A DNA stretch of 64,000 bases from Candidatus Omnitrophota bacterium (GCA_903856085.1 CAIOAT010000047.1:84634-148633), one strand, 5' to 3'. Counted from the first letter of the stretch, positions 1,161 through 49,100 are shown. The notes: generated by a model not told the origin, from the letters alone. Numbers and translations: made by a program.

Positions 1161-4100
1161 ACTGCCGCAGGCGCAGCTTGGGGCGCCTGGACCAGCGTGG
1201 CCGGAGCAGTTTTCACCGCATTGGGAACCGCCGACGCTACGACCCCTGGAGTGGCGGGAGCTTTCCCGAACTTCCCTGAGAACCAAGCCATCATCCGTTC
1301 CAGAGCGGACATTCCGGGAGCATTTATTTCGATCAGCTGATCCACTTTCGCTTTTTGCGCGATGGTCAACGATCCATCGGCGACAAGTTTTGCCATGACA
1401 GCTTTGACTTCATCCACAGAGGCTGGTTTCTCCGCCGAAGGAACCCCGCCAAATCCGAAAATAGACTGCAGTGTTTTTCCTGCCGCCTGGGGTCCGCCGT
1501 TCAGGACATCGAGGTTATTTTTGACGTGCACAGCGATTTGTTCAGCGATGGCGCCGACGATACCGCTCAAGAGGCCTTTTTCAGCGCCCTGCGCGGCTTT
1601 GATCAGATCAATTCCCTGTTTTTGGGCAAACTGCCAATGGACCCCCAGGCGAGCCATTATAAATTCAAGGAACGAAGAACCAACGGGGCCGGTTGTGGAG
1701 ATCTGCAGTGCCAGCCAGCTTGCCACTGCCCCCGGTAAGTGGAACAGCGCGAAAACAGCCGCGGATAAATTGACAAGCCTTTTTGCGGCCTTCTCGCCAA
1801 GGAAGGAACCGATCGCGGCAGGTATTCCGATAATGACCGATGTTTCGAGGACGGGCATAATGTAACCGTTGATGATCCTATTCAGGACCTGTCCGATGTT
1901 TTGCCCGAAGACCTTGCTCGAAAAATTTGTCAGGCTTTCCAGGACCGATCGCACGATGCCGGCAGGCCGTGTCGTAGTCGCCAGAACAGCCGGAGCAGTG
2001 AGCGCGGTGGGCGAAACATTTGATTTTTCGATAGCGGGGATCGTCTTAAGGCCCGCCTGATCAAAGAGGAATGCCCGGTGATGTCCGTTGTCAATAGCAA
2101 TCGAACCATCCGGCAGGTGCAGGATCTCGATAGGATTTGCCTTCGTGAATTCAATCAGCTTGGCGATCGCTGCGGGGCTTGCTTTAAAGGCAGCCAACAT
2201 TTCTCCCATCGTCGCATTCCCGGGGATTTTCATCCCAAGAACATTGACCAAAAGATCGTGGATGCTCTGGATCGTGACTCCCTGGCGACCGATCTCTCCC
2301 CGAGGCGTTCTCAGGCTGTCGATCAGAATTTCTTCCGGAGCGGTGGCGGGCGTCTGGACGGTTGTTGCGGGCGCTGTCGTGCGTCCAAGAATGCGGTCAA
2401 TAATGGCACGGAACAACTCCGCGAACCCGGCGAAAACGGATTGAACCTGACCCGTTGATCTCCCGCCGATATTGGTGCCGGCAACACCGCCCTGGCCTTC
2501 CACAACGGGAGTTGTCCCCTCGGGAAGTCCCGACAGACTGACCGCCGAAATTTCCGCAAGGATGGGCAGAATGTTCGCCAAGGCGGTACCCCGGATATTT
2601 CCGAGATTGATGTCCCCGACTGTCGCAGGCTGATGTGCCAAGCTATCTCGCAAAGCCACCGCCTGGCTCGCCGTAAAATCGGCCGGCAGGGTGAACGAAA
2701 CCGTTGCAAATCCCTCTGGGATCGCCGTGATCACGGCTGTTATTTGACTATCCGTCAGATCTCGGCCAAACGTGATGGAAATATCCTGCGCTCCACCGGG
2801 TACGGTCCTCTGTATTTCCATAAAAAGATCGCGATTTAGGCTCTCCACATTCCGCCCGTTAATCTCGAGTTCGACCATCGGCGCTCTCGCCGGCGCTTCG
2901 GATTCGGTTATGCCGTGCTTCAATGCGTCGGCGGCTCGCGTCACATCGATCGGCGCCTCCTGGTGCCGGTAGGCCGCCTGATCGCGAACCACCGAGGCAC
3001 TATCAAAAGTTTCGTGAGTCGTTCTTACTTCAACACCGATCCCCGTAACCGCCCGGATGAAATCGAGAATCCCGGACGCGGGTGCTTCGTGTGTTCCCGC
3101 CTTTATTTCGCCTGGGATTTCCGTTTGCGGACGTTCGAGCTTACGCGTCGGTGCTTCCGCTCTCAAACGGGCCTGTTCGGCGGCATCATCCATGCTCTTC
3201 TGAGCAAAGCTCTCAAGGTCTAATCCTTCTTTTACTGCTTCATCCACCTTGAGCCTCATGCTTTCGCCCGCCTTGAGAACTTCGGAGACCAAGTCGGACT
3301 TGCTCAGATTTTCTCTTTGCAACTTACCGGTTCCCGAGAAAAACTCGCCGATAAGACTATCCACTCTTCCCCGAAGGGCCTCATTCGCGAGCGCACGGGT
3401 AAGCGCCGTTGCCAGAACATCGACGAGCTCATTCCCCTGGACCGCACCGATATTCGTGATCTCGCCGATCCTGAGGCCGAACTTCTCTTGAATGGCGTTG
3501 CGCAACCCTTCGGCATCCAGCGTACCGTCCGCTCTGGTAAAATTTTTGACCAGGTCTATCATTTCGAGGCGAACATTTTCCGGCACGGACGCCGTCGTGA
3601 TACTGCCCAGCATCTCTTGGATCTGCGCGTCGATACCTTCGGCACCCCCGAAGAAAAGCTTCATGGATTTCTGGAAGGCGGAGAAAACATCCCCTTCCAT
3701 CAAGGCGCGCTCCAAGGACCTGCTGTCCGCGGCCTCGATATTGTTCTGGGCCCTGACGAATGCCTCGCGGGCCCACCGGGAAGTCGGGAAGAATTCCGCA
3801 AGCCTCTGATAAGCGCCGTCCACAAACCGGCTCAAGCCTGACGACATTCCTTCCCCAAATCCTCGCATTAAAAATTCACCGCTGCCGATTGCCGTTCCTT
3901 TTTCGAGCGATACCAATTGATAGCTGAATCCCACATCGCCCTGGCGGCCCGCACGGCCACGATTCTGCATATCTGCCCGGACGGAATCGTTCACCCCGAT
4001 CCCGATTTGAACAAGACCTTGGGTCTTCAGCAGTTCTTTAAGCTTGATATCCGTTCCGCGGCCGGCGATATTGGTCGCGATTGTAATGCCTCCCTTTTCA

Positions 4101-7100
4101 CCCGCGGCTTTGATGATATCGCTTGACGCTCTCTCATTGCTCGCATCAAATGTCCGGAAGAGATCACCGTTTTTGGTATTCATGGAATCCAGGATTTTCT
4201 TGGCACGCTCGACGACCACAGGATCGAAGACAATCTCCTTGCCGGCCGCGTCTATGCCTTTACCGCTGGCGAATTCTTCGAGGATGGCTCGGACATGGAC
4301 TTCCATTTCTTTGGCGCTTTGGATAGATAACGTTGTGATCAGGAAGGAGCTTCCCGCATCCAGGAGGTGCCGCGCCAAAACACTCTTCAATCCGTTCGGC
4401 CCGTTCAGGAGGTCCGCGTCGCTCCTAAAAGTCCTCATTTCCGAGTCAACCCGTAGCTGCAGGTTGTGCGCGGGAATCTCCGCCACCTCAAGACCGTAGA
4501 GGCGCTTGAGCGTATCAGGCGTCCGGCCTTCGGTCGCAGTGCCGGTCATACCCGTAACCCTCTGAAAGAAGTTCAGAACGTCCCGTGTCTGGATACGGGC
4601 CGTGGTCACAGTCTCAGCATGAATGGCCAAACCTTCTTTAGCTTCAATAGCCTGGTGGAGCTCGTTCAAACGCTGACCGTTTTGATCGGTGCCGGTTTCA
4701 CCGCTGATCAGTACGACATTTCCTTGGTCATCAACGCGATATTGGACCCCATCATGGAAAAGGATTTCGGCCTGAACGGCCCGGTCCAAGAACTTTTGTC
4801 CTTCCGCCGTCAAAGTCAAACGGCCTGATCCGTCTGTCGCGACCTCAACAAACTGGTGGAGACCCTCGGCTTGCAGTAAACGCGCGGCCAGTTCACGCCC
4901 GGCATCGGTTGCATGGGCAAAACGTCCCGCTTGATCGAAAACCACCTCAAATTCTCCGGCCACTCCCTCAGGTCCCTTCACGCCGCTCCTGAAAACTTCG
5001 GTCCCTATCTTGGTGCGTTTCAGCTCACTTACTATTTTCGCAAACGCCGTCAAGATGTCCCGCTGTCCATTCCCAACAAGCTTTCCGGATCCCGAAGAGA
5101 TAATGAGAGGTGTTTTCGCGAGCGTGATCAGAATGGAGTCGGCCTCGTCGATCACGAGCAGGAAGTCCCGGAAATCATGTCTGAAAATTTCCTGGCCCGG
5201 TTTTGCCTGGATATCGTTGTACACCTGATCGGCCTTCAAAGCCTCGTCGCTCACATAAACAATGCTTCGCGAATAAACATCCTGTTTTTGACCCAAGTCC
5301 ATATTGTCGTGGATATACCCGATATCCTTACCCAGGAAATCCGCAATCGCCACCACCTCTTTATAGGCGGCTTCAGCCCGCTCCGTCGTTGTAGTCTGCA
5401 TAACCGCGTGGCCACTGATCAAGGCTGTCAAAAAGCCGACATAGGTTTTTCCTTCACCGGTCAGGAGCTCGGCGATCTTTCCGCCCTCAGCCATAACCGC
5501 AGACGCCATGAGCTGTTCCCGGTGAAGCACAACGGCGGGCCTGTCCGGATTACGGGCCGTTTCGACAAATCCGATCGCAAGCGCATAAGCCGCAAAAAGC
5601 TTGTCACCCTGGGCATTATTAATTAAGTCGAGGAGCGCCTCGCGGATCCTGCCAAGATCTTCAGGATTCCGGCAGAGATCATTTAACACGGCTAACGCAT
5701 CCCGGCCTTTCAGTTCGATGCCTAAGGCTTTCACAATTTCGACCGCTATGTCCCGGCGTATCGAAATAATGCTGTTGACTCTCGCCGCGAAGGGCGCTCC
5801 GGCAATCCGGTTGGCCTTGAGAATCACCCACAGTCCAGGCGCCCTCCCCGTGAGCCAAGCAAACCACGACGACCGGCCGAACAGACCCGTCTCACCCAGC
5901 TTAAAGTTATCCCCGTTAAACCTACCAAAAAGGACGTTGATTTCATCATCAGTCATTCTGGAAAGATCCGCGTTCCTTAGAGCTTCAAGCATGGCAGGAT
6001 CAACAGATTCACCAATGCCCTCTCGCAAAGATTTCCACTCTGTCAGGTAAGACTTGCCAATGTCCGCACCGCCGCCCTCAAGGGATCCAAATACGGCTCT
6101 TTCCAGTTTCTGGAGGGCTTCGAGAGTCACCCTTCTCTCGGAAATCGAGAGCGAGCCGATCCTGCCACCAACAGTCATCCAGGTCGAATTGAACCACTCG
6201 ACCGCTTTCGAGAAAACGCTCTTGAACCGATCCCCGAAAGTCGTTGTCTGTCGATCCCGTATGGCTTTTTGAACATCGGCAAGTGATCGATTCACGTCTG
6301 CGGGCACGTTCGCAGGATCGAATGTTCCGGGAGTTTGGGTCACAGTTTCGGGAGGCGTGATCTCCGGGAGCTTTTCGAAAGGCTGGCGTCCCGCATTAAG
6401 AAGAAGGTCCGCCGAAATTTCTCCTCTCCGGATAGTTTCACGGCCCACCATCACGAAATCCCCGCGGACAGCCAGAGTCTCGCCGGAGACAATGACCAAT
6501 GTTTTTCCATTCAACGAATCCCGCAAAGCAGGGTCAGCTTCGATCAGCCCTTGCAACCGTGACAACAATTCAGGCGATTCTCCGACGCCATCCCATGTCA
6601 GTCTCAGGGTTCCGTCGCTCGCGAATTCAATCGTGATACGACCCTCGACTCTGATGCCGGCTATCCTCAAGATCGAATCGATGAGAGGATTCCTGGCCCC
6701 GGGCTGGGCAAAGGTCACGACCATGTCTATGATATCGAGTAGACCCGTTGCTAAGGCAAGCCGAGTCACATCCCCACTCGGAATGGTATCGTTACTATGG
6801 GCCCCGAAAACATCGGCCAATTTCCCGGCAAACGCTTCCCAGCTTGATACATCGGCGCCTCTAAGCTCATTCAGGGCTTGCATCATTTCAGGCGACACCC
6901 CTTCGCCTCTTACATTGGCCCGCTGCTCCAGGAATTTCACGAAAAGATCTCTTAATTGCGGCAAGTCAACAGAAACAACATCTCGGGCCAGCAAGGTGAA
7001 AATATCGCGCAGCAATTCAGCGGCGAACCGGCCATTTTCGCGAGCACCCACAGCATCGACCGTGTGCAGCTCTGTCATCGAAAACATAAGTTCCGTGTGG

Positions 7101-10100: not shown

Positions 10101-13100
10101 TTGGCGGTTTGCATGATTCTCCCGGCTATTCTTGCCAGCCCTGAAGTGAAACCTAAGAAGGCGGCTTCCGCGGCAAAGCCGATGAAATCGATGACGTTAA
10201 TTCCGAACAACTTTTTAACCAAGGTTTCATCGCTCGCCTCGGCGATAAGAGCGATCTTCTGAGAAATAATATTATTCTGGCCATCCAACTCGGCAAATCG
10301 ATTCCCCGTGACTCCGATGAGGCCGCCCAAACCATTAAAAAGCATGGCATAGGTCGCGCTTATCCTGAAAGGATCACAACCATACGCGAGAGCAATGAGC
10401 CCGCCAGTCAGCAGGACACCGGCCACGATAGCAACACCGATCCAACCGCCGGCCACAAGAAAGGTTCCGGCAGCAACAGCCGCAGAGATTTTAACGACGG
10501 CAAGTACAACCGCAATTGCACCCACAATGATCGCCACCCCGGTCGCAATGACGTTATGCTCCCCAGCAAACCCGACCCAATAGTTGGAACACATGGCATA
10601 TTGATATTGCAAATAATGGAACGATGTGCTTAATCCGTAAGAAATAAAATCATAAGCTGTGCTAAAGCCGTACCCAATGCCGCTCAAGATGCTTTGCCCC
10701 CACGCTGGCAAGATATCGTAAATATCGCTAAAATATCCGCCGACTTCGGCACGGAGTCTCGACCAGAAGCCTCTCTCGGTGAGATTTTGCATGTCCGCCA
10801 GCGAACCCTCATGCAACTCGGAGAAGAAAAAGCCTTCTTCCTGAGACCAGCAGGTGACGGCGCAGTCGAACGCTATCCCGCCAAGCGATACGCCGCTGGT
10901 GATAGTGCCGTCAGCCAGAATGTTGAGACTTCTGAATTGAAGAGCCGAGTAATTGCCAAGATTTTCCGTGAAGCCATTCTTGAACCCGTCATTCAGGCCG
11001 CGCTGGGCGACGTTGAGGAGACCGCCCTTAAATTTCCCGAAATCCCCTAGGCCGTGAAGGATCTGTGTTCCGTTCTGCAGAACTACCCGGTCGTCCAGGA
11101 CTTCAGAAAAATTCGTGTAGTCCATTTTTCCGTCAAGGATAAAACCGGCGGTCGAGAAGTCCAAGTAGCCCTTCTTTACACCCCCGTCTGAAATCTCCAC
11201 AATTTCACGCCGGAGCAAGACGCCGTCGCGGCCAAGGATATCCTTGACCGTGCTGCCATCCGCCCCGACGGTCAGGATCTCGCCGCTCACGATCCCGAAG
11301 TGATCGTAGTTCATGGTCTCGGTTATCTTGTTGGTGCCAAAACCGTAGACCACCTGCACGGAGGTCACCGAATCGATCAAACCGCCCTCGCTCGTGTATT
11401 GCGAAGTGGTGGTGACGATCTGCGTCGCGACCTTGGTCACGCCGTCCGAGAGGACCTTGACCGTGTCATCGGCGACTTTTGTCACCTGGGTCCAGGCGCC
11501 GCTCGCATCGTAGAACTTTTCCCACTGCGTCTTGACCGCCCCGCCCGTCGCTATGTACGACTCGTAGGATTTGAGGCCGTCGTCATAAAGCGTTTTTAAC
11601 TTCCCGAAACCGTCACTGGTCGTCATCTCGACCTGCATCCCGTAGAGGAAGGACATCGACTCGGCTTCCGTCGGGCTCATGAGTGTCGCATTGCCGTTGA
11701 TCTTGACCGCGACAGACTCCGCGGCGAGTTTCCTTCTCCTCTCGTCCAACTGCTTTTCGATCCCCGCCCATGTTTCCGCTTGGTAGCGACCGGTCTGGAT
11801 GATCTCGCCGCCGGCGCCGACGAAGATGTGCTCTTTAATCCGCTCTTCGATGACGTCTGTATCCGAGATTACGTCGTTGTAATACAGCAGGCTGTTGTAG
11901 GCGCGTGCGCGGCTGGCAAAATTCCCGTCCCGGTCCTGACTCAGAGCGCCGAGTTTCATGAGGCTCGAATCTGCCAGCACGGCGTTGTAGTCGTAGAGGC
12001 TGCTTGAGGCGAATTTTTCGGGATCGAATTCATAGAACTGGTAGGTCATATTCTGCGACCAGTTCTCGTAATTGCTCCGACCTCTCAGGAGCTCATCGGT
12101 GAAGATCTGGCTGAAAGAGGTCTTGTCCGATTCATAGCCGTATTCGTAGTAATCGCGGATCGGCAGCAGTGTGTTCTCCGTAAAATTAAGCACCAGCCCG
12201 CCCAGGTTCACAATGTCCGTATAGAGCCCCTTCGTGTTGCCGCCGCTCACCGAGTAATCGGAGATCAAGAAAACAGTCTGTCCGGCAGCGTTCTTTGTGC
12301 CGATGCGGAACTCCTTCAAAAGATCCGTAATGTACAATGCCTTGGCCTGTTGCAAGCCCTCGAGACCGCCGGTCCCCTTGCGATTATCATTCCCCATTTG
12401 ATAGGTTGACCCATGAAGCACGGACTGGATCACGTCCTTCATCTTGGCGTAAAGGTCGAAGAGACCTTGTTTGGGGACATTGCTTCTGTCGTTGGCCGTA
12501 GTGCCCCACAGATCATCGCCGCGAAGGTTATCGGTCAGCTGTTGGACATAGGCCACGATAGGAGGTTGGCCCGGCAGAGTCGGACCTTGTAAACGCGTAT
12601 CGTAAGCATAACGTATGAAATACGGGTTGCTTGTCTGCGCGGAAGAATTATTATTGTTGTATACGTCACCCTGGCTGATACTCGCAGTCACATCGCCGAA
12701 AATTTTCTGCAGCCGGCCGTTCGGGCCGAGCATGGAATTGGCGAAATCATCCACGATCATCTGGATGCCACCGTTAAAACTTCCCTGCGAAGGAACGTGC
12801 CCGCCGGCCTCAAAGCCCGTCGTGTTATAAGCGTTGACCAGTACGCCGTCGCTCTTCGGCTTTTGGATCGTGCGTAGATCGCGCCCGGAATCGGTGGCGA
12901 AGTCCTGGAACGCGGCACCATTCGAATCTCCGTGCAGCAGGAACTTCCGACGAATCTCTTCCATTTTCTTGGCATAAGTCCCCTTGATCGTCGCAAAAAC
13001 GGGCTGGCCGTCTTCGATCCCCACCTGGACTTTGTTGAAGCGGTTGTCCCCGATGATCGAATTTTTATAAATATCCGTGATAATGGCGAGCTTGCTGTTC

Positions 13101-16100
13101 TTGTACATGGGGATCGTTCCGTAATTGACGAACTCCTGATCCGTGATGATCCCGTTTTGGAGAAGCATGTAGAGCCCGTTTAAGAATGTGCTCGACGAAG
13201 TCATGGTCGTATCGGTCGAGTCCTTCCCTCTGAGCTCATCCAACTGTTCCTGCGCCATCGACTCATCCAGCGTGGCGCCGGTGATGCCGAGGACATTCAC
13301 CACTCTTTCGTTGAAATCCTGCTGGGATTGGAAATACTTGGGCGAATCGCCCGTGATCTCGCCCACCATGCGCACGAGCTGCTTTTCCGATTCGGTGAGC
13401 CCTAGCTCCATTTTGCTGCCGATCATCGTATCAAGGATCTTGAGACCCACTTCTTTAAAGACCGCGGCCTGTTGTGCCGGGGTGTCCGTCCCGAAGCCGT
13501 AGATATCGAACGACTTGAGGAAGAGCGCGAATGCGGCATCCAGGCTATGGCCCTCGGTACCCGTAAGCATCGGCCGCCACCAGCTCTCCGACCCCATGTC
13601 CGGAATGATGTAATTGTTGGCAAAGGTGCCGTAGAAGAGGTCGTTGAGGGCTTCCGTCAGCGCCTTGAACTGCCTGTAATAGGCCTGATCCAGCACTTCC
13701 TGGCGGGCTTCCGGAGTAAGGAAGTGGTTGTACGGACTATTGTAATCATTGTAAACCAGATACATCTGATGAAGCTCGGTGCCCAAGGCCCGCATGACAC
13801 GGAAAGCCTCTTTGACGACGCCCTCGCCCAGTTGCGCGGCAACATTCTGATAACCGGCCATCTGGCGCAGGCTCGTGATCTTGTTCTCAAGGCCTGCGGC
13901 ATCTACCATGAGCTTGTCGACTTCGCCCCTGTAAGCCACAAGCGCCGTTTTGGCCTTGGAGGTATACGTATCCCAGGCCTGCTTCTCGGCCTCGTCGAAT
14001 TTTCCGTTCACAAGATCGATGCCTGTGGTAGCCGAGGAAGTGGAGAGGACATTCTTGGATCCGGTGCCGCCGACATGCGTGTTGTAGACCCGTTCCAGAT
14101 AAGTCTCGATATTTTCCTCCGGATTCGCGCTCAAGGCCGGCATGTCTTTGGCGGTCTCGAGGTGGAAGATCGTTCCCTTGTAGATATCCACGATCTGATC
14201 GAACCACTTGTCGAACTGATCCGTCATCCAGGTCAGGCCGCGCCCCATCACGTCTGAGGATTCCTCGCCTTTTTTGTTGACGCTCACGGTGATGAACTGA
14301 CCCGGATTTTTCGGATCGGGGATACGGACGTCCTCGATCTGGTCCTTGGTCAGGTACATCGTCATATCGTGGAGGATGCCGAAATTGCCCTCGCTGATGG
14401 ACTCCAAAGGCGATGTCAAATCCAGTTCAAACGGATTGCCCCAAACCTCGGAGAAATCGCCGAGCATGTAACGCACCAGGTAATCGCGGTAAGCCTTCTT
14501 GTATTCGTTCAGCGCATAAACCGTGCTAAGGAACTCCTGCTCCCCGCTCTGACCGGCGAGAGCGCGCTTACGGGCCGCTTCCAGGAGGTACTTCGCCATC
14601 GTGGTCTCGAGGTCTTTTAATTTATCCGCCAGCAGTTTTCCTCCGGACCCGATTTCATTGACATAGTCGCGGTAATAATCCTCCTCAGTTTTCTCGAACC
14701 AATCCTGGGACGCGTCCTTGGAGGTCATATTTTCTTTAATGAGATTCGAATAGGCGCTTAATTGATCCACCTTGGTCGGATCTGTCGGAGCGTAAGCCGT
14801 AACGGACTTTTCCACCACCGTGCGGGTCGGGAGATACTTGTTGAGGATAAAATCCTTGTATTGCTTCGCGAGAGTCCCATCCTCATCCGCATTCGTGGCC
14901 AACGCGGGCATGAAGTCGGTATCAATCGCATTTTCAGGATCAAGACCGGCTTTGGCTTCATTGTTTACGAGATCGAGCACCGTCTTGGTCGCCGCATCAG
15001 TGCCCTTTGCCTTGACCGTTTCCTGATAGGAACTGTTGGCGATCTCGCGTTGAATGATGTAGCGGACCGAGGAGGCGTATTGCAGCTTCCAGGAGAGCGA
15101 GCTGTCGCTATCGAGGATCTTCAGGGCCTTGTCCCGCAGGTTCGCCACGCTGTCGTAACGGCTGGGATCCGTCCGGTTGAGCTCTTCCAACTGAACCGGC
15201 AGATTGTAGGATTCGAGTGAAGTGCGGAGATCCACCGCCAGCTCATTCGTCGAAAATTGCGTCCGGATGTTGCCGTACTCCTGGATAAAACGCTTGGCGA
15301 CATCCACATACTGATAATATTGCGTTGAAATATAGTCGAGCATGTGCATGACAGGGTCCGAATAGAAATTCGGCATGGCGCTGACGTCCGTGATGCTTGA
15401 GCCGATAAGGGTCAGAACGCTCTGGTCCCACTGGCGCTTGATCTGCGTCGCATCGAGCCCGCGGAAGATATCGTCCATCTCAAGGACCAGAGCCTTGTAG
15501 TGGTCGATATTCTCGAGCAGCGGATTCACGATCTCGTGGTTCGAAGAGTCAAAACCGCTGATGGCTTCTTTCGGGTTTTTCATCAGAGTTTCGGTGAATT
15601 GCACCAACTCAGACATGATGCTGTTCAGACGGCTGACGCCTGCCATGCTCACGTTGGCCGAATCGCCGGTATAAACCGTCGAACCCTTATCCCAGATCGG
15701 CTCGATGACGTCCATAAAGAAGGTCTGGAATCCGCTCGCGCTGATCTCCGCCGCGCTCTCGGCCGTGAACGTGTTCGTCATACCCTGGTTCTTGTTCAGC
15801 ATGCCGGCAAGGCTCTTCAAGCCGCTCACGGTGTCAAGTGTCAGGTCCGCGGTCTGCTTGATCGTGTTGTGGAAGAGCATTTCAACCTGGTAGTCGTAGC
15901 GGTCGATCTGGCCGGTGGTGTAATTGTCGGCATTGATCAGGGCATCCTTGGCTGCACTCGTCGGAACAAGGAGGTCCTCGCCTTCCGAAAGGGCCGTGAT
16001 ATCTGTCCAATTCTGGACGTCCTGCGTGAATTTGACCGAATTGGGCTGCGACGATGAGGCCAACAGGAAAGCCAGGACATCTTCCTCCGGAGCTTTTTTG

Positions 16101-19100
16101 TCGGCGAGTTCCGTGGAGCTGACCATGTACGAGGTGCGTCCGCCGACAAGCCGATCGTTCTGGATCGCTGCATTCCGCGTCGAGATCTCCTTGCGAAGTT
16201 CCGCGTCCTTGGCCTGCTCCGTGATGTAGGTCTCGTATTCGGTTCGGGCGATCTCAATCCAGTTCTTGTCAGCGTTGTCGGAATACAACTGACCCGACTG
16301 ATTGTCCTTCGTCGCAAGACCGTTTTGAACCTTGCCCATCAGCTCAGTGTATAAAGTCTTTTTGGCCGTAAAGTACTGGGCTTCCTGGGCAATCATGTTG
16401 TTCATCAACGTGACCAGTTGTCCGCCCGCATGCGCACCGGTGGTTGTGGATGTATACTCGACGCGCTGGATATAATTGTCGTCTTTCACGCCCTTGCTAC
16501 TCACATTGGTATTCCAGTTAACACCATTCGTATTAAGCGATGCCGCTGCCGACAGGGAACCAACGCCTGAAACAGCACCGGAATTCCCCTTAGGTCCAAA
16601 GGCTGTGTAATCCCAACTAAAGAGTTCACTGATAAGCGATGTGTCATTCTTGTAATTGATCTGCATCCGCGGGAATTCTTCGAGGAAGAGATTGCGGACC
16701 GACTTCCCCGCCACGGGCGTCAGGTAATCCCCCGTACCGCAAGCTCCCGTGCTTCCGGAGCCATTGGTGCACTCGTTCAAATACTTTGTCATGAAATCAT
16801 CTACGCTGAGGGTCCCGGTAAAAGCGGGATCGCGCTCCCGAACCTGAACATACCGCTGGATCTCATGCGTCAGGCTGTCATCCAGACTCACAGCGAGATT
16901 GGTCTGCGCGTCCCCGGAGCCTAGCGCAAGAGCCGTCGTCTGATCGTCCGGGTTGAAACTATTCAGCGGGTTGTCGTCCTTGAACATCACCCCCGAGAGA
17001 TCATTCAGGAAGCTCTGGAAATACGAGACCGAGACTTTCCCCGTCGAATCCACGGCGCCGCCTGAAGTAAAGGTCAAATTCCCTACGCTAAAAGTGTCGG
17101 TCTTATCAAAATACGATGAGCCCGGCGTCAGGATCGGGAAATCGAGGCCGTACTCAGACGCCGTATTCTGGGGATTGTTTATAGTATCAACGGCAGCTAT
17201 ACCTCCGGCGACAGCACCCGCAACAGTTCCAGTAGAACCGCCTGAAAGCAAGCTCGCCATCCCGAGCAATGTGGCCAAATAGCCGGCGGTGTTGGTGTAG
17301 TTGCCATCGAGCGGAATTTTCCTGGAGTACCAATCCATGAGGGCACGCGTATTCCCGTTAAACTGAGCCTCACTTGAGACAAGATACTGACCGCCAACCT
17401 TAATGCCCGCGACATCTTGAATCAGCGACCATTGATAGAACTGAGCCTGCAGGGTTTTCATGGAAGTCATGATCGACGTATCCGCCGTCGCGCGGTTCGC
17501 ATCCATTGCCGTGGTAAAATTTGAGAAGGCGGTTTCGATATCCGCCATGGCGGCCTTGAGCGGTGACGCGTCGCGGGCCACAACGCCGGATGAATAGACC
17601 AGACCATCGAGCTGCGGACTTTGGTTCGAAACAATGTCGTAAATATCCCCGTTGATGATGTGATTCGTGTTGTCCCCGCCGGTGGCGCGCGTCACGCTCA
17701 CAAGAGGACTGACCGTCGTGTTCGCCGTAAAACCGTTCTTTCCGAGGTCCCCGGACCCGCCAAGGATGAAATCGAGACGCTCGCGGTATTCCGAGAAATA
17801 CTTTGAGCGAAGTGTCGTCGGCGCAAGCGGATAAGAGGACATGTCTTGCGGGATAAAGGCGAGCGTGGATTTATTCACCAGCGCGGTCGCGTCATAGCTG
17901 GCACCCAGCTGGTAAACACGCGCCTCGATCGACGACGAATCGAACACCTTGGTCAGCGTGATCTTCTTCGTCAGAGAGTCATCACTCAGATCGTTCCCAT
18001 CGGTGATGTTGACCCAGGTATTCCCCACTTTCTTTTGCGGGCGGTAGATCATCGTGGTTCCGGAATATCCCGCCACATCTTGCTTGTTGTAGACCTGGAC
18101 CTTGTAATAGTAGCCGTCTGCATCCTTTTGGACCGTGGACTGATAATCAAAATTCCCGATCGAATCGCTCGTAAGTCCGGTCGCATTCCCGGCAAGACTC
18201 ACGATCGAGCCCGTCTTGGAATCGAATTCAAAGCGGACGGCGCGGCTGGACTGGAAGGCAGCGCTCAGGCCCGCGAGCTGGTCCGCGCTCTCGGTGGTCT
18301 CGTCGTTATGGAGCAGCTCGAGTACCCCGTCGGAGCGGCGGCGCAAGTGGCTGTATTTGGTATAATCGCTGTACTTGGTCGGGATCGTCTGGTTGTAATA
18401 TTCCTCGGCATCTTCCGCGATAAAAACGCCTTGTTCATAGACGAGGACATGCCGCGTATCCTTGAACGGGAGTCCGACCTCGGTCACCCCGAATTGCGGG
18501 GTCAGGTGCTCGATGTAAGTTTCCTTCATCTTCATCGGAACACCGTATTCGTCGCGGATCACCCAGGAATTACGCAAATCAACAGCATTCAGGGGCACAT
18601 CGGCCGAGACGTTTCTCCCCTCCGCTCCGTTCATGGGAACGATATACCGGTCATACGTGTAGGCGCGCACCGTCGCGAACGCCGACCGGTCATCGATACC
18701 TGTTCCACCGCTCAAGAAGGATTGCCTGACAGCGTCGTAGAGGCTGGCATTCTCTGTGCTGAGACCCGCGCCCGGCGCGGAATCGAAGGCGATGTCGTAG
18801 AGCTTTTCGTTTTCACGGCCCATGACTGAGATATTCCCGTCGGAATGAAGGATATAAGTCTCGATCGGCTTGCCCGTGGAGTCTTTCATGATATTGCCGC
18901 TTGTGTCACGCATGTAAGAGTACCGCTCCACATTTCCGGTTCTGTCCACGGTCAGGAGCGTCATCCCCTCGGCATCGGTAATGACTGAAGTGTGGTCCGA
19001 AGTCGCATTGTACAAAGGATTGTTCGTCACCTTCTGCAACTCATCACTGCCGATGGTTGAGCTGAATATCTGACTGACCCACGAACCGTCACCGTTTTTG

Positions 19101-22100
19101 ATCTTGCTGGGGTCGGTATGGGCGATCGTCAAGACCGGTCCGTTCGTGCTGCTCTGGTAATAGTCGTAGTAGTGAGTGACGCCGTCAGATTCCACGGTCC
19201 GGTCGATCCTCTCCTGGCCGCGGGGACCGCTATAATACGTGAAGGTGATCTGACTTTGCTCGACGCCGGTTTGCGGATAAGCCACCGCCGTGGTCTGGAC
19301 CAGCCGGTCATTTGCATCGCGATAATAAGTCGTGTAGGAATAGATCTCGTTCTGGAGGCTATAGCCGGTGATGTTCCCGGAGGCATCGCGCGTCGGACGG
19401 GCCGCCTGGCGGTACTGCTCCGTCGCCTTGATGAGTTCAAAGCCCTTGGATCCCGTGTACTCCTGGACCACGAGGATCGGTGTGGCCTCGCTCGCCTCAA
19501 GATGTTTGATCATCGGATCCTGACCCGAGAGCAGTTGAATCAGCGTTGTGTTCTCAAGGGAGAGTGTCACCACCTCAGTGATCGCGCCGTAAGAATCGTA
19601 ATGATAGATATCCACAGATTCCACGTCTGCGACGCTGTCGGCCCGGAGCTTCACGGCACGGTAGACTTTCTCCTTGCCCTGGTCGCCGGCGTAGAAAATA
19701 TAGGTGTGCTGGAAGGATCCGCTCGAGTAATACGTCGTCTGCAGCACGAAATCCATGTCACCCGCATCGCTCGCCCCGTCCTTGTCCATATCGAATAGTT
19801 TGAGATCAAGACCCGTCGTGCTCTCGCTGCCGCCGGCCTCTGCGCCGTATTGATAGGCATTATTCTGATTCGAGGTCTGGGCGGAATTCGGCGGAGGAAG
19901 ATCTAGCGCGGTTCTCCGGCCACGCGCCAGGCTATCCTGTACATTGATCAGCTGGCGATCGCCCGTGACCGATACGGCATGCTCATAATCTTTCTCACCT
20001 TCATAAATCGTTTCGACCATGGTTTTCTTCAAGGTCGTACCGTCGGGAGTTTCCATCGGCTCAAACGCGATCAGTTGTGTCTTCCTCAACGCCCCCGTCT
20101 GCGGATCGTAGAAATTGAAGATGCGCTGTTTGGGATACCGGTCGGTTCCAGTAATGGCATCCGCTTCTTTGAGATCCGCGGTGTACAAAGGCGCAAGGGC
20201 ATTCGCGTCACTTCCCATGTCCAGATATTCATCCGTGGTCAGAAGGACTTCTTTCCCGCTCGACCCTTCATAGATCGCCTGACCGGTGATCTGGTAGCTG
20301 TCCTTTCTCATGTAATCCACGCGCTGCAAAGCGCCGTCGGTTCCATACCACGAATAGTTCGTCGTCAGGACGGAGCCGTCCGGAGCGTAATTCGTGACCT
20401 TCGAGGTTTTTTCCGCGTCTTTTTCGCCAAAATAATCGATAACGGTGGAGACATAGTATTGAGGCTCACCTTTTTCAGCTTCATTGGAGTAGGTCACGAT
20501 CCTCGTTTGGGCGCCCAAGGATTGGCCGTACTGGGTTGCCTGGGACGAAACATAATTGGCTACTTGGGAACCGCTCGTTGCCGCCTGAAGCGCGACTGTC
20601 GCAATATTCGCCATGCTTTGCAGTTTTACAATGCTTGGATAATCGCTCGTGAGCTTTTGCAACGCATTGACATTCGTCGTGATGCCGGCTTTCAATTTTG
20701 TGATTGTTGCGTTCAGAGTGCTGATATCCGAATTGACGTTGGCTTGGCGCAAGACGCTCAAAAGCTGGTCGATGGTCGTCGAATCCGAAAGAACCTGGTT
20801 CTTGAGCCGGATGCCATCGGAAAGGGCGACGCTATTCTGCAAAATGCTCGTCGGACCTGTAGCGGCCAACTGCGGCAGCATGTTGTCGATCTCCTGGATC
20901 TGTTCGTCGATTCCCGCGATTTTTGTTTCCAGAACATGCCGCGATAAGGCGACCGTCGAATCAACCAGTGGAGAGTGAAGAGTAGCATTAAGCGCATCCC
21001 TCTCGGCCTGCAATGCAGGTTTCGCTTTTGTGGCGGCGTCGCGCGCCGTTTCGACAAAACCCGGGATATTGCTCAGCGCATTCGCGAAATAGCCGCTGTC
21101 GTCTTTTTGCTCGGCTGACTGGAAAGTCGACGATGCGAGGCTGAAGTAAGACTCGGCGAGATTGATGTAGGCGACCGTCAGGTGGATCTTGTTATTTTCC
21201 GTCTCCGGCCTGGCCTTGGCGATGATCGGATCGATCATCGTATGAATGTCCGCAACCCCCTGATCAATCGTGATCCACTGGGGATTAATATCTTTCTTTG
21301 TTTCATCGTAGTAATTCTTCATGGAAGTGGCAGTCTGGAGAGCCTCCGCAATGATCGTTTGATTATCGGTGACAGGCGCGCCGGCGATCCGCTTATAGTC
21401 CCGGGCCATCTCGATCGAGGATAACAGCTGAGCGTTCTCATCCTGCAGGGACTCGAGCTTCGTGATCGTGTTGGAAAGAGTCTGGGCCGTGTACTGAACC
21501 TTGCCGGCCTGAATACTCGCTTTTTCCTTCAGCTGATCCGCCTGATCCCCAAGCCCACGAACTGCCTGCGCCACATACATAGGCACATCGCCGTATTTAT
21601 TGCCATCCCCGACCCCTTCCTGCCCCGAATCGATCGTGTCCCAGAGTTTTTTCGCCGCAGTGGCGATGCCGAGTTTCTTTGCGCCCTCGATCTCCAGGAT
21701 CCTCATGTCGCTCTTGGCCTGGATCATATCCGTAAATTGCTGCGCCATCTCGGCCACAAGTCCGATAGCTCCCGGGTTCGACCCTCCCGCTTTGATCGCC
21801 TCAGACATTTGCGTAGCCTGCTTTCCTTTCGCCTGGGCGGAATCATACGCCTCTTTCATGGCTTTTCTTGCAAGCACCATGGCCTCATACAGAACCTTCG
21901 CCTTCGTTTTTGCCATGACGGGATTCCCGTCCTTATCAAGCAGCCCGGTATCGGTAAATTCCGCCTGCGGATCGCCGAACGTCACGGTCTCGTCCCACGA
22001 AACATCGGTGGTAGGGATCAGATTCGCGGATCCCGACGAAGCGGTGATCTTGGCGGCCTTATCGGCTTTTACATAATCGATCTTCGCAAGATCGGCCCAC

Positions 22101-43100: not shown

Positions 43101-46100
43101 TCGGCCTGGGCCTGCGCGGCGAGATCCTTTACCATTTGCGCATTGCTTTGGAGGAGGTCCAGAGGATCCACGCCCCAAGCGGCAAAGAGAGCGCGAAGGT
43201 CCGTCAAATTAACCATCCCGTCGCCCGTGATATCGAACTCATTGACTTTCGAAACCATTTCTTCGATGCCTTGGATATCGCCGGCATCGATCACGCCATC
43301 GCCGTTGCGATCCACCGAAATGATGTCTTCGGAAGTCATGCCGTTTTTAACGGCCTCTACGATCTTTGTGAGCTTTTGAACATCCTCCCCATTGACCACC
43401 GAATTCCTCGTCTGGTCGGCCTTGGCCCAACTCGCGATGCTCTTCGCCAGATTAAGGGCATCCTGAGCATCGATCTTGCCGTCTTTATTGACGTCGGCTT
43501 TTTCCACCTGCGCCGTCGGGAGACTCCGCTTGTAATAATCCTGCATACGTTCAAAATCGGCCGCGGTAATCTTGTTGTCGGCATTGACGTCCACGCTGTT
43601 AAAATACGAGTTATTGATAAGCTGCTGGTCATAACGCGTGACTTTGCCGTCGGCATCAATATCCGCCAGTTTCGCCCGGGCGATGATATCGGTCCGGGAC
43701 TTTGCAATATCAGTGGCAATACGCATCACAAGATCCCGCACCTTCTCACCGGCCACTGCCGTCACAACGACGCGCCCCGCAACAAGTTTCGCATTGAGAT
43801 CCGCAACCTTGGCGGACGCCACGGTCAGAGAATCATTGATCCCGGCCACGAAGGTACGCGCCGCAAGCTCCAATACCTTCAGACTGTTGAGTGAGCCCTC
43901 GTCGATCTTCAGGGCATCCTCAAGAGGATTTAGACTTGCGTCGGAATAAGTCGTCACGCTCGACGCCAATTCTTTCGCGAGCTGCCCAAGTGCTTCCCAG
44001 ATCGCCATGCCCTTGGTCACGCGGAATGCGATCGCCGGCGATATCGCCGCAAGCTTCGCGTTGATGCCGGCCACTTCTTCTTCCGCGACGAATCTCAAGC
44101 CCGCCAGCTGTTTGGCCCGGTCCATACCCGCAAGCACCTTCGCAACCGCCTGGACCACCACATTGGCATTGACGCCAAGCAAAGGTTCGATGTCATTGAT
44201 CTGCAGGTCCGTGATGGGGATCAGGCTGTCATAGACCGTCTTGGCGGAAGTGACGATCGCGACATCCTTTTGATCGACCTTGCCATCTCCGTTCACGTCG
44301 ATAATATCGTTGATGACGTTCGCGAACGCGTCCACATCCGCTTGATCGAACTTGCCGTCATGATTCACATCAGCCCGAACAAACGCGTCTGTCTTTGTTC
44401 CCGCGTTCGACAAAGTCGAGATGGCCTGCCCCAGCTGCTGATAACGTTTGGCTTCCTCGACGAGCGCGATATCCTTTTCATCCACCACGCCGTCATTATT
44501 CACATCCTGGATCATGTAATTGGCGACGGCTTTCTTAAGCGCGATCCAGTCGCTCTCGTCGATTTGAGGCTTGAAAGGCAGCGTAAGCGCTGACGCCGTC
44601 GCAACTCCGTCCAGAAATTCGGGCGTTTTTGTGGAATCGACCAGGACACTCGAGTTCAACTGATCGGCCGGGACTTCAAAAACGGCGCGATCGAGATTCT
44701 CTTTGCCTTTAGTCAGCTGAGAATAGATCTCCGCTCGGGTTCCGTCGGACAGCATGTACGTGTCGGCGCGGATTCCCTTCGCAGCATCGTAGACATACTT
44801 CACAAGACCCGCCACCGCGGTTCCCGTAAGGAGGACCGTATAGATCGGCTGCTTGGAGGTGTTGAGCGAAGTGCGCTTGGTCCACTGGCTCGAGGTAATG
44901 CCGCTCACAAGAGCGGCGATCTCGCCGCTAATATTGAGACTGGTCTGCTGGGCCGGCGTAAGCGTATAGGTGTCCACAAGCGCAGAACCATCCGTCTCTA
45001 TGGCGTAGCGATGGAAGAGCGTCGGCTTTGTGCCGAGGGCGTCGCCCGTATGATTAAACTCGACGGAATACAAAGGATTGCGTTCGGAATCGAGATAGAC
45101 GCGTGCGGTCCGGGCGCTCGTCGCAAGCAAAGACAAACTTGTGCGTAACGCCGCCGCATCACCAAGGTTCTGCGTGAACGCTGCCTTCTGGTCCGCCGAC
45201 AAGACGAACTGATCGGCGGCAATGATCGCGCTCGTCGGGTCCGCGGCATCTTTCCGGATGAACTTATAGGCCGAGACGATCGATCGGTCGGTGCTCGACA
45301 GAACGAGCGAGTACTGGAGGTTGCCGCTCGCGTCATTGACAAACAGACTCGAATCCTTATTGATGTCATAAATAGGATTCAGGAGATCGGCTTTGGTGAA
45401 ACCCGTCTCCTTGCTTTCCATGATATCCGCTATGCGAACGACATCGGCATTATCGATCTTGCCGTCGCCGTTGACATCTCGGACTGACGTAAAGGTCGGG
45501 ACCCCGTTTGCGATCGTGATCTGGTATTGACCCGCGCCGATGCCGGCGATGGTCCCCGAGGCCACTTGGCCCGCGATCACCGTCCCGTTCAGCGCCACAT
45601 TCTTCAGGTTCGTGCCATCCACAGTGTAGGTCACTGTCCCGTCTGGGATCGTCGCTGTGGTGGTAGTTCCGGTCACGGGCGCAGCGACTTGGATCTTCGC
45701 CAGAGCCGCCGCAAGCATATCGCGATCGGAGAGCGTCACACCGCCGGTCTGATCGATATTCGCCTTGGCTATTTCGCCGGGCTCGGGAATCTTGAGCAGA
45801 TTGGCCGGATTTGCGTTGTATGCTTGGATGTAATCGATCACAGCCTGAACTCTCAGAAGATCCGCCTGACCCAGCTCATTTCCACCGGCAAGATTCAGAG
45901 ACTGAGGATTCTGATAAATGCTCCGGTAGAGATTGAAGTCGTCGTTATTCACCTGCCCGTCGCCGTTAAAATCAAGCATTGCCTTAAGTCCGGTGGTACC
46001 GTCCGCGCCGTAAAGGACGGTACCCCAATCATTGATGCTCGAAACCCCCGTGAGGCTTTCCGGGTGCAACAGATCGACCGCATCTTTCATGGCCTGCAGG

Positions 46101-49100
46101 CGGTCGACATCCTTCTGGTCGATCCAGTTGTCCCCATTTATGTCCATCTTATTGCTCAAACCTTGGACATAGGAACTCACATCGTGCGGCTCAACCAACA
46201 TCACGGACCCGTCAGTGGATAAGCGCACCTCGTAGACCACTGTTCCGAGGGTCACTCGCTGGATGCCGTCGGCGCCAATCTGCGACTTCGTACCGTTGAA
46301 GGAGTACGTGCCGTCGTCATTCTTGGCATAAGTGTAATTAGTGCTGTTCAATGCAAGGACCGTCGGGCTGACCACGGTGCTCTCGGCATGCTGCTGGGTC
46401 AGCGTGACACGCCCCCATGTATCCACGGCCAAAAGATAGATCTTACCGCCGATCGTGACATGCTTATCGCCCAACGTATTTTTAGATTCTTCCGGAACGC
46501 CGGAGAGTTTGGACTCGGTAAATGTGTAAACTCCCTGATTATCATCAGAAATGGTGAATTCGCGGCCGTCCACGATGAACTTCGCGGGGTTGAGGAGCGC
46601 CTCATAATTCTTGAGATCGGCCTCATCGACGATGCCGTCCTTATTGGTATCCGCTTTGAGATAATCCTGCAGGGTGAAGCTCGTCCCGAGAGCGAAGTAC
46701 TGGGTGAGCTTTTCGGCCTGAGCGACATCCGCCTCGTTGACCACGCCATCATTATTCAGGTCATACTCATAGAGCTTGTTGGCTGTCGCGAGAAGCATGG
46801 CCTTGTCCGTATCGTCGACCTTGCCGTCTTTATTCACATCAGCCAGGGCGAGATCCTCGGGGGTAATATTGAGGCTGAAGTATTGCTGCATGTCATTGGC
46901 GAGGCTGAGATCGAGCGAATCAAAAACCCCGTCCCCGTTCAGATCGCGATCGGCCATCGCCGCGATCGACGCCTCCAGAGCATCAACATCTTGACCGTTT
47001 ACCTCATTGTCACCATTAACATCAGCGCGATTGTAATCTTGCGGCTGGATCACTTCGCCGCGACCGGCCGCATCCTTGACCGATTGGACCTTGGCAAGCA
47101 GCGCCGTCAACGCAGCGGGAGTCAGATCGGCTGTGGTGATCTGAGCACCCGCGTTTTCGGGCTTTTGATTATAATTCGCCACATAGCCCTTAAGCGCAGC
47201 CAAGCCATCGTTCAGCTTTGTCAGGTCATCGCCAGTGACCGTTCCGCTGCCGTCCAGATCCGCCACGGCCCCTTCGTAATATTGTTTTTTGTTTAGATCG
47301 TACACTTCGCCGCCGATCGTGACGCGGAGAGGCGCTGGATTACGCGTGGTGGTTTCGACTTTGAGATTATCGAACTTCGCGGTCGTTTCGGTCGCCAGAA
47401 GCGCGATGCGCCCGGAGGTGAGAGCCGTATCGGTCACCGAGGCCACCTTCTTTCCGTTCACCCACACGTTGATCTTGCCGCTGTCATACTCGATCCGGAC
47501 CTTGGCCGTCTGGTCTTTCGCCCACGTGAAGCCGAGCGGGACCTGGACCGAAGAGTTCACCGGCATATCCTGGACATTTCCGGCGACTTTCTTACTGAGC
47601 GAAAGCATGCCGGTTTGGCCATTGATGGAAAGCTGGTAATAATTGTTGGCGTCCTGGTCATTGAACCGGATCTGGACCTGGTCGCTTCCTTCGGTCGTCA
47701 CGACATCCGTCTCGAACGCGAAAGCGCCCTGCGTCACAAGGGACGTCAGAAGCTCGGTCGATTCCCCGGCCGTGGTCGTCTTGATCGTTTTGAGCACGTT
47801 GTTGGAAACCACCCAGAGGCCCGACTTGATAACCCAGTCCGGAGGCATGACATTGGAGTCGAAATTGGTATTCACGACCGACGTCAAGATCTCCGGGTTC
47901 GTCGTGTAGGTCACGGACGGATTCGTGGCAAGAACGAAAGTGTAAGTCGAATCGGCGTTCTTCCGTATCCAGTATTCCTTGCCGTCCAGGAGAATGCTTT
48001 CATCATACTTGTGAGCGCTCACGTTGTCGTACTGCTCGACCAGCTTGATCGTTCCGGTAAAGCTGTCGCGCAACACGTTATAGATCTTGTTCTTGATCTC
48101 CACCCGGTTGGAGGTGGCGTTCGTGGTAAAGGTTTTGTAGCCGTCAAAAAGCAGGTAACTTCCGTCGCCGCGGTCGGTCACCCGGTAATCAACACCCTCA
48201 AGACTGATGAGCTGGTCAGCCGCGGTCACCGACGTCTCGAATTTCTGGATAAGCGACAGTCTGCCTTTGTCACGGTCGAAACGGACGAGATATGTTTTAC
48301 CGTCGAGCGTGATCTCGTTGGACTTCGGATCGCTTATCTGCCCGTTGATCACATAATTGCCGGCGACGTTGATACTCCAAGTGAACTTAATCTTGGCTTC
48401 TTTGTTGTCAGCGGAACAATTATCGCTCGGCGGATCGCAGATGGTGCCATTCATAGCCTGAGGACCGCCGTCCGCTGAGGAGTAATTCTTGTGCGGCTCC
48501 ACAAGCTGGATCCCGATCTTCCGCGTAAGATCATTTTGGATCTGGTACGAAACATTATCCAATGTGATAAAGCGAGATGCCGCATCTCCCTTGACCGCCA
48601 CCTTGGTGTCTTTGTCGGTAAAGGTGAGAGAACCGTCACGGTTTTCCGTCACGTAGTAAGTGCGGCCCCCTATCTCAAGGACCTGATCCGCCAGCGTTTC
48701 GCTTACGAGATGACGTTCGATGAGACTCACGAAGCCGGTGAAAGGATCCTGCGCGATATCATAGAGGATGCCGTCGAGCTCCACGCTCGGCTCAGTGTCA
48801 TAACTCTTCACCTCGGGTTGGCCGCCTAACACAAAACCAAACTTCATGTTCCCGTGATCGATGACGCCGTAAGTCTTGCCCTTAACTTCGATCACCTGAT
48901 CAAAGCGGTGCTGGCTCGCCTTGGTCGCTTCGACCAGCGTGACCACGCCGGTATCTTTATCCACCTGGATCTGGAACACCGTGCCGCGGATCTCGACCGT
49001 CATGTCCGCATTGCTTGTGGCGCTCTCGGTTCCGGATTTAAATGTGTAAAGATTCCCAACAGGAACCACATCCCAGGTGGCGCCAAGCAATTTCAGGACA

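Follow-up and report, generated by a model that had tools for sequence, protein, structure and literature searches.

A conserved module of a Dockerin-type giant protein of Omnitrophota, probably a degenerate YD-like beta-hairpin repeat, has a weak and purely local resemblance to RHS/YD toxin shells

Dockerin-type giant proteins of Omnitrophota have been described as carrying dockerins, DUF1080 domains, a long N-terminal part free of transmembrane helices, late transmembrane anchors and then SecA-related domains (bioRxiv 10.1101/2023.11.21.568195). In the Archaeovorin-type and Dockerin-type giants of this phylum, antiparallel beta-helix "tubules" of about 1,500 amino acids (aa) have been reported, and their authors note features in common with RHS repeat proteins (bioRxiv 10.1101/2023.11.21.568195). 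A 2026 catalogue of Omnitrophota makes no mention of RHS. Here, we analyzed a stretch of 64,000 nucleotides from a Candidatus Omnitrophota bacterium (CAIOAT010000047.1:84634-148633), referred to below as the window, in which a preliminary description had proposed a YD/RHS-like repeat segment at 18300-20500, followed by a region that could hold an enclosed domain or the RHS-associated core. This segment falls within a module of about 940 aa (17726-20533) that is real and not a product of chance, and that is encoded in a giant protein of the Dockerin type. We put at roughly 55% the probability that it is a conserved, degenerate YD-like beta-hairpin repeat module forming an extended antiparallel sheet or spiral, which would act as a structural scaffold or spacer, and possibly as a binding surface, in the extracellular part of the protein. 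Its resemblance to the RHS/YD toxin shells is local and weak, and it has no toxin-capsule parts.

On the minus strand, bases 2-64000 of the window form a single stop-free frame of 21,333 aa, and both ends of this frame lie beyond the window; the gene is therefore longer than 64 kb. The three peptides quoted as YD-like in the preliminary description are all found in this frame, with DRTGNVERYSY starting at 18946, EIYSYTTYYRD at 19348 and TNYAPDGSVL at 20395. To place the module among known proteins, an exhaustive HMMER search covering 1.84 billion representatives recovered seven proteins (E=1.3e-95 to 7e-8) that are colinear with it over about 900 aa. Four further loci were recovered with a closer sub-alignment (A3), and each of these loci has the module in a frame without stops from one end of the retrieved sequence to the other. 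The module is thus conserved and colinear in at least 11 other giant-protein fragments (seven proteins and four loci). Where the source carries a name, it is labelled as a fragment of a metagenome-assembled genome (MAG) of Omnitrophota (P0003, P0007 and L003), Planctomycetia (L002 and L004), Babeliales or Leptospiraceae. A word-indexed search detected no homologs, whether the query was the 911-aa module, alignment A1 or the short conserved block A2, and the single module sequence found no related loci among genome and metagenome contigs. The most conserved block of the family is located in Table 1; it is made up of short hairpins whose turns read D-x-x-G-x, and it includes the first of the three quoted peptides.

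The module is internally repeated at the level of profiles. When it was compared with the whole giant protein by blastp, no internal sequence repeats were detected; when the alignment was compared with itself by hhalign, module residues 276-453 matched residues 29-196 with a probability of 95% (E=1.7e-8). Higher-order units of about 75-105 aa were observed, each anchored on a family-specific YxGxxGxE turn. The motif Y-x-G-x-x-G-x-E-x-[LIVM] is confined to the module, with four occurrences there and none in the rest of the 21,333 aa, and is kept in the homologs (YSGLRGFEK, YEGEAGHERI and similar); as it was defined after viewing the sequence, its shuffle statistic is optimistic. The sequence family of the module is absent from Pfam and NCBIfam and, as far as we found, its signature of two turn motifs is undescribed.

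Structure prediction points to an almost purely beta module. Two AlphaFold models were built, the first from 951 aa with 8 sequences (mean predicted local distance difference test score, pLDDT, 51; predicted template-modelling score, pTM, 0.33) and the second from module residues 1-590 with 7 sequences (mean pLDDT 61.7, pTM 0.43). The best parts are residues 10-190 and 260-460 in model 1 (pLDDT of about 70-80) and residues 260-460 in model 2 (pLDDT 80-93). In model 2, 32 beta-strands are predicted, averaging 8.5 residues in length, and the 25 tight turns span 2-9 residues each; over its residues 1-475, 51% are in strand and 4% in helix. Low-confidence inserts break the hairpins at module residues 90-135, 193-260, 331-352 and 475-515. 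In YD repeats, the aromatic residue of the YDxxGRL motif ends strand 1, [D/G]-x-x-G makes the turn and the next strand follows. Likewise, in 10 or more of the 25 predicted turns, an aromatic residue precedes [D/G]-x-x-G-x and a hydrophobic residue or Glu comes next, which is a degenerate version of the YDxxGxL turn. Both the YD-like and the YxGxxGxE motifs fall exactly on predicted hairpin turns, as in HY|DSYGA|IT, FY|DPQTGA|LR, YR|DANDR|LV, TV|DRTGN|VE, YA|GDQGKE|KV, YT|GSKGFE|LI and YS|GPRGQE|RI.

The fit to the YD consensus claimed in the preliminary description holds in part. The strict pattern Y.YD..G.[LIVM] occurs once in the region (YHYDSYGAI); in the model, its Y-x-Y closes strand 1, DSYGA makes the turn and I opens strand 2. 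Relaxed YD patterns were observed 3-5 times for 0.07-0.5 expected in shuffles, the highest value of all windows of the giant protein, but the bare core [YFW][DG]..G was not enriched (2 observed, 0.78 expected). The curated hidden Markov models (HMMs) were silent. Searched with Pfam at E<=10, the module gave no family at all, RHS_repeat (PF05593) included, and RHS_repeat had no match at E<=1 in the 5,000-aa tile around it (window 10001-25000). With NCBIfam, no match to TIGR01643 (YD_repeat_2x), TIGR03696 or NF041261 was obtained, for the first two not even at E<=10. As a positive control, RhsA of E. coli K-12 (L006) was detected by RHS_repeat (1.5e-68, 11 stretches), PF03527 (9e-16), Ntox34 (1.8e-42), TIGR01643 (5e-41, 13 stretches) and TIGR03696 (1.4e-23). 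Our own YD HMM, built from 12 RhsA repeats and run with filters off, gave 214 bits for RhsA, -14.6 bits for the module and -6 to +2 bits for module shuffles. Among ten homologs scanned with Pfam at E<=1, RHS_repeat appeared only in P0001 and below threshold (E=0.14, 13 bits for a cut-off of 22). The module as a whole therefore shows no tandem repeats at the curated cut-offs that define the RHS/YD family.

Profile-profile comparison was the only sequence method that gave a YD signal. An 11-sequence alignment (A4) was compared by hhalign with the 12-repeat YD profile and with five column-permuted control profiles. The best YD match, at NEIYSYTTYYRDANDRLVQT, had a probability of 54% and E=1.3e-4, for E=0.16-0.52 with the permuted controls, and this hairpin is at a position homologous to the sub-threshold RHS_repeat match of P0001. 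A second match was obtained at SVDIYHYDSYGAITEV (E=0.016). With full-length RhsA, alignment A1 had a single, insignificant match in the most conserved block (E=0.047, probability 1%). These comparisons weakly suggest that one or two of the approximately 25 hairpins resemble canonical YD repeats beyond chance.

The models were then compared with known structures using Foldseek. The top 30 PDB matches of model 1 were all RHS-type shells, and the top 28 of model 2 were of the same class, with E-values of 1.7e-14 to 1e-6 for the RHS, teneurin and Tc shells. For model 1 they include the type VI secretion system (T6SS) Rhs protein 8QJC (E=1.7e-14), Tse5, the Tre23 carrier, teneurins, TcB/TcC (4IGL and 6SUP) and SGS1. 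Over these shell matches, the TM-score was 0.07-0.19, the root-mean-square deviation (rmsd) 23-33 A and the identity 9-12%. These were followed by OspA single-layer sheets (probability 0.9-1.0, E of about 1e-4) and, further down, by propellers of low probability; among viral models, a lipoprotein and MORN-repeat proteins matched best, with a probability up to 1.0 and a low TM-score. The preliminary description had tied its proposal to RHS_repeat hits and to an RHS-shell fold. There were no RHS_repeat hits; as for the fold, beta-hairpin repeats with degenerate YD-type turns are predicted and the local geometry is RHS-like, but the models do not reproduce the global shell.

The OspA and MORN matches bear on the best-surviving alternative, which we consider rather unlikely: a generic beta-hairpin repeat, either a single-layer sheet of the OspA/MORN kind or propeller blades, unrelated to RHS. 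Its YD-like turns would be convergent, because aromatic-D/G-x-x-G is a favourable tight-turn sequence. The bare turn core at shuffle level, the negative HMMs and TM-scores to the RHS shells at random level all agree with such a repeat, as do the Foldseek matches to OspA variants (0.9-1.0), to viral MORN-repeat proteins, to a viral lipoprotein and, more weakly, to the DDB1 and Elp2 propellers. A sequence search of the PDB with the single module sequence returned only RACK1, a WD40 propeller (E=0.076), and nothing with the profile. The advantage of the RHS shells in Foldseek may also partly reflect target length, which leaves this alternative some room. However, with two independent models, the E-values of the RHS-type shells are 5-8 orders of magnitude better than those of any other fold, the YD profile match beats all five permuted controls, and the propeller matches have low probabilities (0.16-0.75). 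The beta-propeller reading, backed only by those low-probability matches and by RACK1, was rejected.

The preliminary description had further placed an enclosed payload or the RHS-associated core between 18300 and 10700, where we obtained no match to TIGR03696, PF03527 or the Tox and Ntox models. In the tile 10001-25000, scanned at E<=1, the best Pfam match was MerR-DNA-bind (E=0.11). No RHS core (TIGR03696/PF03527) was found in window 2-25000, the true C-terminus being outside the window, and no toxin domain was found anywhere in the window. From the module to the membrane anchor, there was no relevant Pfam or NCBIfam family, PADLOC and PHROGs were empty, and no sequence relative was present in the PDB. 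The autoproteolysis motif expected of such proteins was absent too: DPxG[LWFIM], PxxxxDPxGL and RYYDPxxGRF-like motifs occur 0 times in all 21,333 aa, with about 0.7 DPxG[LWFIM] expected by chance. The block had been said to sit about 6,000 aa upstream of the C-terminus; as the frame runs off both ends of the window, these 6,100 aa are the distance to the window edge only. By tblastn, two minus-strand blocks of the downstream region are conserved in contig CALNYI010000047.1 (L001), aa 16,027-16,500 (window 14500-15922, E=2e-59) and aa 17,211-17,428 (window 11717-12370, E=3e-40). Both are better conserved than the module and have no Pfam, NCBIfam or PDB sequence match. Their strong conservation indicates that the downstream region holds real domains; nothing marks these domains as an RHS core or a toxin.

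These results weigh on a second alternative, a true but highly divergent RHS/YD shell. Like the shells of Tc toxins, T6SS Rhs effectors and teneurins, it would form a cocoon, here around an adjacent domain such as a portion of the approximately 2,400 aa downstream in the giant protein. The exclusively RHS-type shells at the top of the Foldseek lists, the YD-like sequence of the hairpin turns, the E=1.3e-4 match of one hairpin to the YD profile and the sub-threshold match of P0001 at the homologous position would all fit it. Teneurins show that RHS shells are possible without toxin release, which provides a precedent. We nevertheless regard it as improbable, since RHS_repeat and YD_repeat_2x are silent in the window at E<=10, and the ten homologs at E<=1 are silent apart from E=0.14, when RhsA reaches 1e-68; the RHS-associated core, PF03527, the DPxGL motif, a toxin domain and a plug or propeller partner domain were not detected; and the TM-score to every shell is at most 0.19. 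In addition, the well-predicted hairpin part covers only about 470-590 aa broken by long disordered inserts, and the module is in mid-protein, about 2,400 aa ahead of the transmembrane anchor. The idea of a self-cleaving RHS cocoon carrying a toxin is not supported, and to annotate the giant protein as an RHS or Tc-like toxin would be an over-reading.

Similarly improbable is a broader proposal, in which the module would represent a new branch of the RHS/YD superfamily that has no core. Its hairpins, instead of closing into a toxin cocoon, would build an open tubular spiral in a SecA-coupled giant surface protein, serving as a fixed conduit or rigid stalk by which an ultra-small episymbiont or predator reaches or feeds on a host cell. 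If true, the RHS hairpin architecture would have been re-used for a purpose other than encapsulation. Finally, the possibility that there is no real feature and that a Tyr/Gly/Asp-rich composition yields YD-like strings by chance can be dismissed: Tyr-rich stretches (5-9%) are common across the N-terminal two thirds of the giant protein and the strict motif occurs only once, but the conserved colinear homologs (E down to 1e-95) refute chance, and the internal profile repeats, the confinement of the Y.G..G.E motif to the module and the moderately to highly confident predicted hairpins stand against it as well.

We thus favor the degenerate YD-like hairpin module as a scaffold. The module lies in the part of a giant surface protein that is free of transmembrane helices and presumably extracellular, where stacking of its hairpins probably yields a long antiparallel beta-meander sheet or an open spiral. 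The stacked hairpins could provide a rigid scaffold or spacer, possibly with a binding surface, and would separate the N-terminal part, with its dockerin and carbohydrate-binding domains, from the membrane anchor and the SecA-like C-terminal part. Several points weigh against this interpretation. The models are only moderately confident (pLDDT 51 and 62, pTM 0.33 and 0.43, 7-8 sequences), and the overall shape, with an open or a closed sheet, is not established from them; TM-scores of at most 0.19 could stem from a poor model and not from a truly different shape. A Foldseek probability of 1.0 is unspecific, as it is also given to OspA, MORN and the viral lipoprotein. The scaffold role is drawn from context only. 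Two transmembrane helices alone would leave the two flanks of the anchor on one side of the membrane, and the weaker hydrophobic segments that follow could change this topology. Lastly, the gene is incomplete with both ends outside the window, so an RHS core or a toxin could in principle lie further downstream, beyond the SecA-like region.

Table 1. Features of the giant protein, in window coordinates
Feature	Window position	Strand	Evidence
Dockerin/EF-hand clusters	43436..50266	-	Pfam Dockerin_1: 4 stretches E=6.8e-40 and 6 stretches E=8e-47
DUF1080/3-keto-disaccharide hydrolase domain	47839-47357	-	Pfam 3keto-disac_hyd E=1.6e-9
Conserved all-beta "YD-like hairpin" module, ~940 aa, aa 14,490 to ~15,425	17726..20533	-	Colinear with P0001-P0007 and L001-L005; hhalign self-repeats; 0 Pfam/NCBIfam families
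Best-predicted hairpin core, module residues 10-475, ~26 strands of 5-18 residues	19109..20506	-	AlphaFold models, turn table, Foldseek against PDB
Sole strict YD-consensus turn YHYDSYGAI, aa 14,799-14,807	19580..19606	-	hhalign against RhsA YD profile E=0.016; model
Hairpin NEIYSYTTYYRDANDRLVQT, module residues 395-414, second peptide of the preliminary description	19292..19351	-	Best profile match to canonical YD repeat
Most conserved family block, consensus FTDRDGxTxMxVDRYGxVxKYxYxxD...ETYI..DG	18785..19012	-	Alignments A1-A3; model 2 strands 508-581
Downstream region up to membrane anchor	10601..17725	-	No RHS core, protease motif or toxin domain; L001-conserved blocks
Membrane anchor: two strong hydrophobic helices, aa 17,817-17,835 and 17,854-17,872	10385..10552	-	Kyte-Doolittle scan
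SecA-like DEAD, preprotein-binding and P-loop unit, aa ~19,492-20,034	3899..5527	-	Pfam SecA_DEAD 5e-33, P-loop_SecA 1e-15, SecA_PP_bind 1e-6

The host protein was identified by scanning the giant frame in tiles with Pfam and NCBIfam. As presented in Table 1, the stop-free giant frame, multiple dockerin/EF-hand repeats, a DUF1080-type carbohydrate module, late transmembrane helices and a SecA-like domain make it a Dockerin-type giant protein as described for Omnitrophota. The best Dockerin_1 stretches are at 50266-50090 and 43591-43436. Bacterial thrombospondin type 3 (TSP3) repeats were not seen, as no TSP3 family appeared in the Pfam scans of the window (E<=0.1-1). The window holds no open reading frame (ORF) besides the giant minus-strand frame. 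The mechanical ORF list contains plus-strand ORFs only (at most 507 aa, for example 35273-36793), and these were rejected as genes, being antisense by-products of the stop-free minus frame. Cysteine makes up 0.1% of the residues of the giant protein.

Strong hydrophobic helices (Kyte-Doolittle value >= 2.4) occur in the giant protein only at aa 17,817-17,872, with about 17,800 aa ahead of them without any. This anchor follows the hairpin module by about 2,400 aa, and the boundary that the preliminary description had set at 10700 corresponds to it. The composition of the protein changes abruptly at the anchor (window ~10600, aa 17,800-21,333), with Tyr falling from 4-9% to 0-1% and Leu and Gly rising, Leu up to 18%. 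This shift suggests that the two sides of the anchor are in different compartments. Weaker hydrophobic segments lie past the anchor at aa 17,931, 18,060, 18,098 and 18,169. The SecA-like unit is embedded about 1,600 aa past the anchor and is divergent, as full-length NCBIfam SecA models score it far below their cut-offs. SecA-like domains have been described in giant proteins and may drive the export of these proteins themselves.

Ahead of the module, the stretch at window 20534-25000 (minus strand, aa ~13,000-14,490) is long, rich in Ala, Leu, Glu and Gln and poor in Gly, a composition of alpha-helical or coiled-coil-like character; a helical lead-in is also present ahead of the module in P0001. 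Over a longer range, aa 12,516-17,428 of the window protein are colinear with the L001 contig (GCA_942490565.1, CALNYI010000047.1, 1-31670). There, the colinear region is called as five genes on the same strand (>4,376, 542, 3,889, 1,908 and >6,336 aa) with short gaps or overlaps between them, which would correspond to a split giant gene or to fragmentation by assembly or frameshift errors.

Other homologs showed additional domains around the module. In L005 (Ga0302252_1000040), a Peptidase_C39 domain (E=2.2e-6) was observed at frame aa 920-993, just before the module at aa 1023-1806, and a weak PepSY match lies inside the module (E=0.0017, below cut-off). A role in the processing of giant pro-proteins has been proposed for C39-like domains; no C39 domain was detected in the window. 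Upstream of the module, L002 (aa 499-608) and L003 (aa 184-252) gave sub-threshold Pfam matches to LXG (E=0.043) and Ntox34 (E=0.2), families linked to polymorphic toxins; far below the cut-offs, these matches are probably noise. Within and after the module in P0003 (aa ~880-930 and ~1330-1370) and in the C-terminal part of P0007, acidic calcium-binding repeats of the D-x-D-x-D-G type such as DIDGDGRVDVDEDANDNGILDEGEDLDGDGRLDE were seen by eye, and they resemble bacterial TSP3 or dockerin loops. The window copy of the module has only a short "DMDKDGASDAGDMD" insert at aa ~14,737-14,750.

The giant proteins of Omnitrophota-like bacteria, which may have a part in attachment or predation, are almost wholly without annotation, and the recurrent module gives a handle on them: from its about 940 aa, with a signature of YD-like turns and a YxGxxGxE turn, a family model can be built and structural studies can be directed. 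The kind of structure, the type of host protein and the resemblance to RHS are already in the literature, and the idea of a capsule with a payload fails the tests applied here. Structure prediction had already brought RHS-like beta structures in these giants to light in 2023, which makes the conceptual advance a modest one.

Compared with known systems, the OspA central sheet and the MORN repeats share with the module hairpin meanders with tight turns (Foldseek probability 0.9-1.0), but they are considerably shorter, trail the RHS shells by 5-8 orders of magnitude in E-value and have no sequence or profile similarity to it. The RHS/YD shells (TcB-TcC, 4IGL and 6SUP; T6SS Rhs, 7Q97, 8QJC and 8CP6; teneurins, 6FAY and 6VHH) gave the best PDB Foldseek matches. 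In its predicted structure, the module shares with them long runs of antiparallel beta-hairpins, tight turns of the form D/G-x-x-G-x-hydrophobic after an aromatic residue, and one or two hairpins with a weak match to the YD profile. In contrast to these shells, it is invisible to the family HMMs, its repeat units of about 75-105 aa are marked by YxGxxGxE, it is without an RHS-associated core, aspartyl autoprotease, DPxGL motif, toxin, plug or propeller partner, the global shell is not reproduced (TM-score <=0.19), and it sits midway in a protein of more than 21,000 aa and not next to a C-terminal payload. The tubule of the giant proteins comes from the same type of host, with dockerins, DUF1080, a late transmembrane anchor and SecA-like domains, as the window protein. 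Like the tubule, the module is an unannotated region of purely antiparallel beta structure comparable to RHS, with homologs from Omnitrophota MAGs. The published tubule is hollow, about 1,500 aa long and carries helices or paired sheets on its outside at regular intervals, whereas the confident part of the module is about 470-590 aa with irregular inserts. The module may be an instance or a relative of this antiparallel beta-helix tubule, of which CAILPI010000004_73 is the published example.

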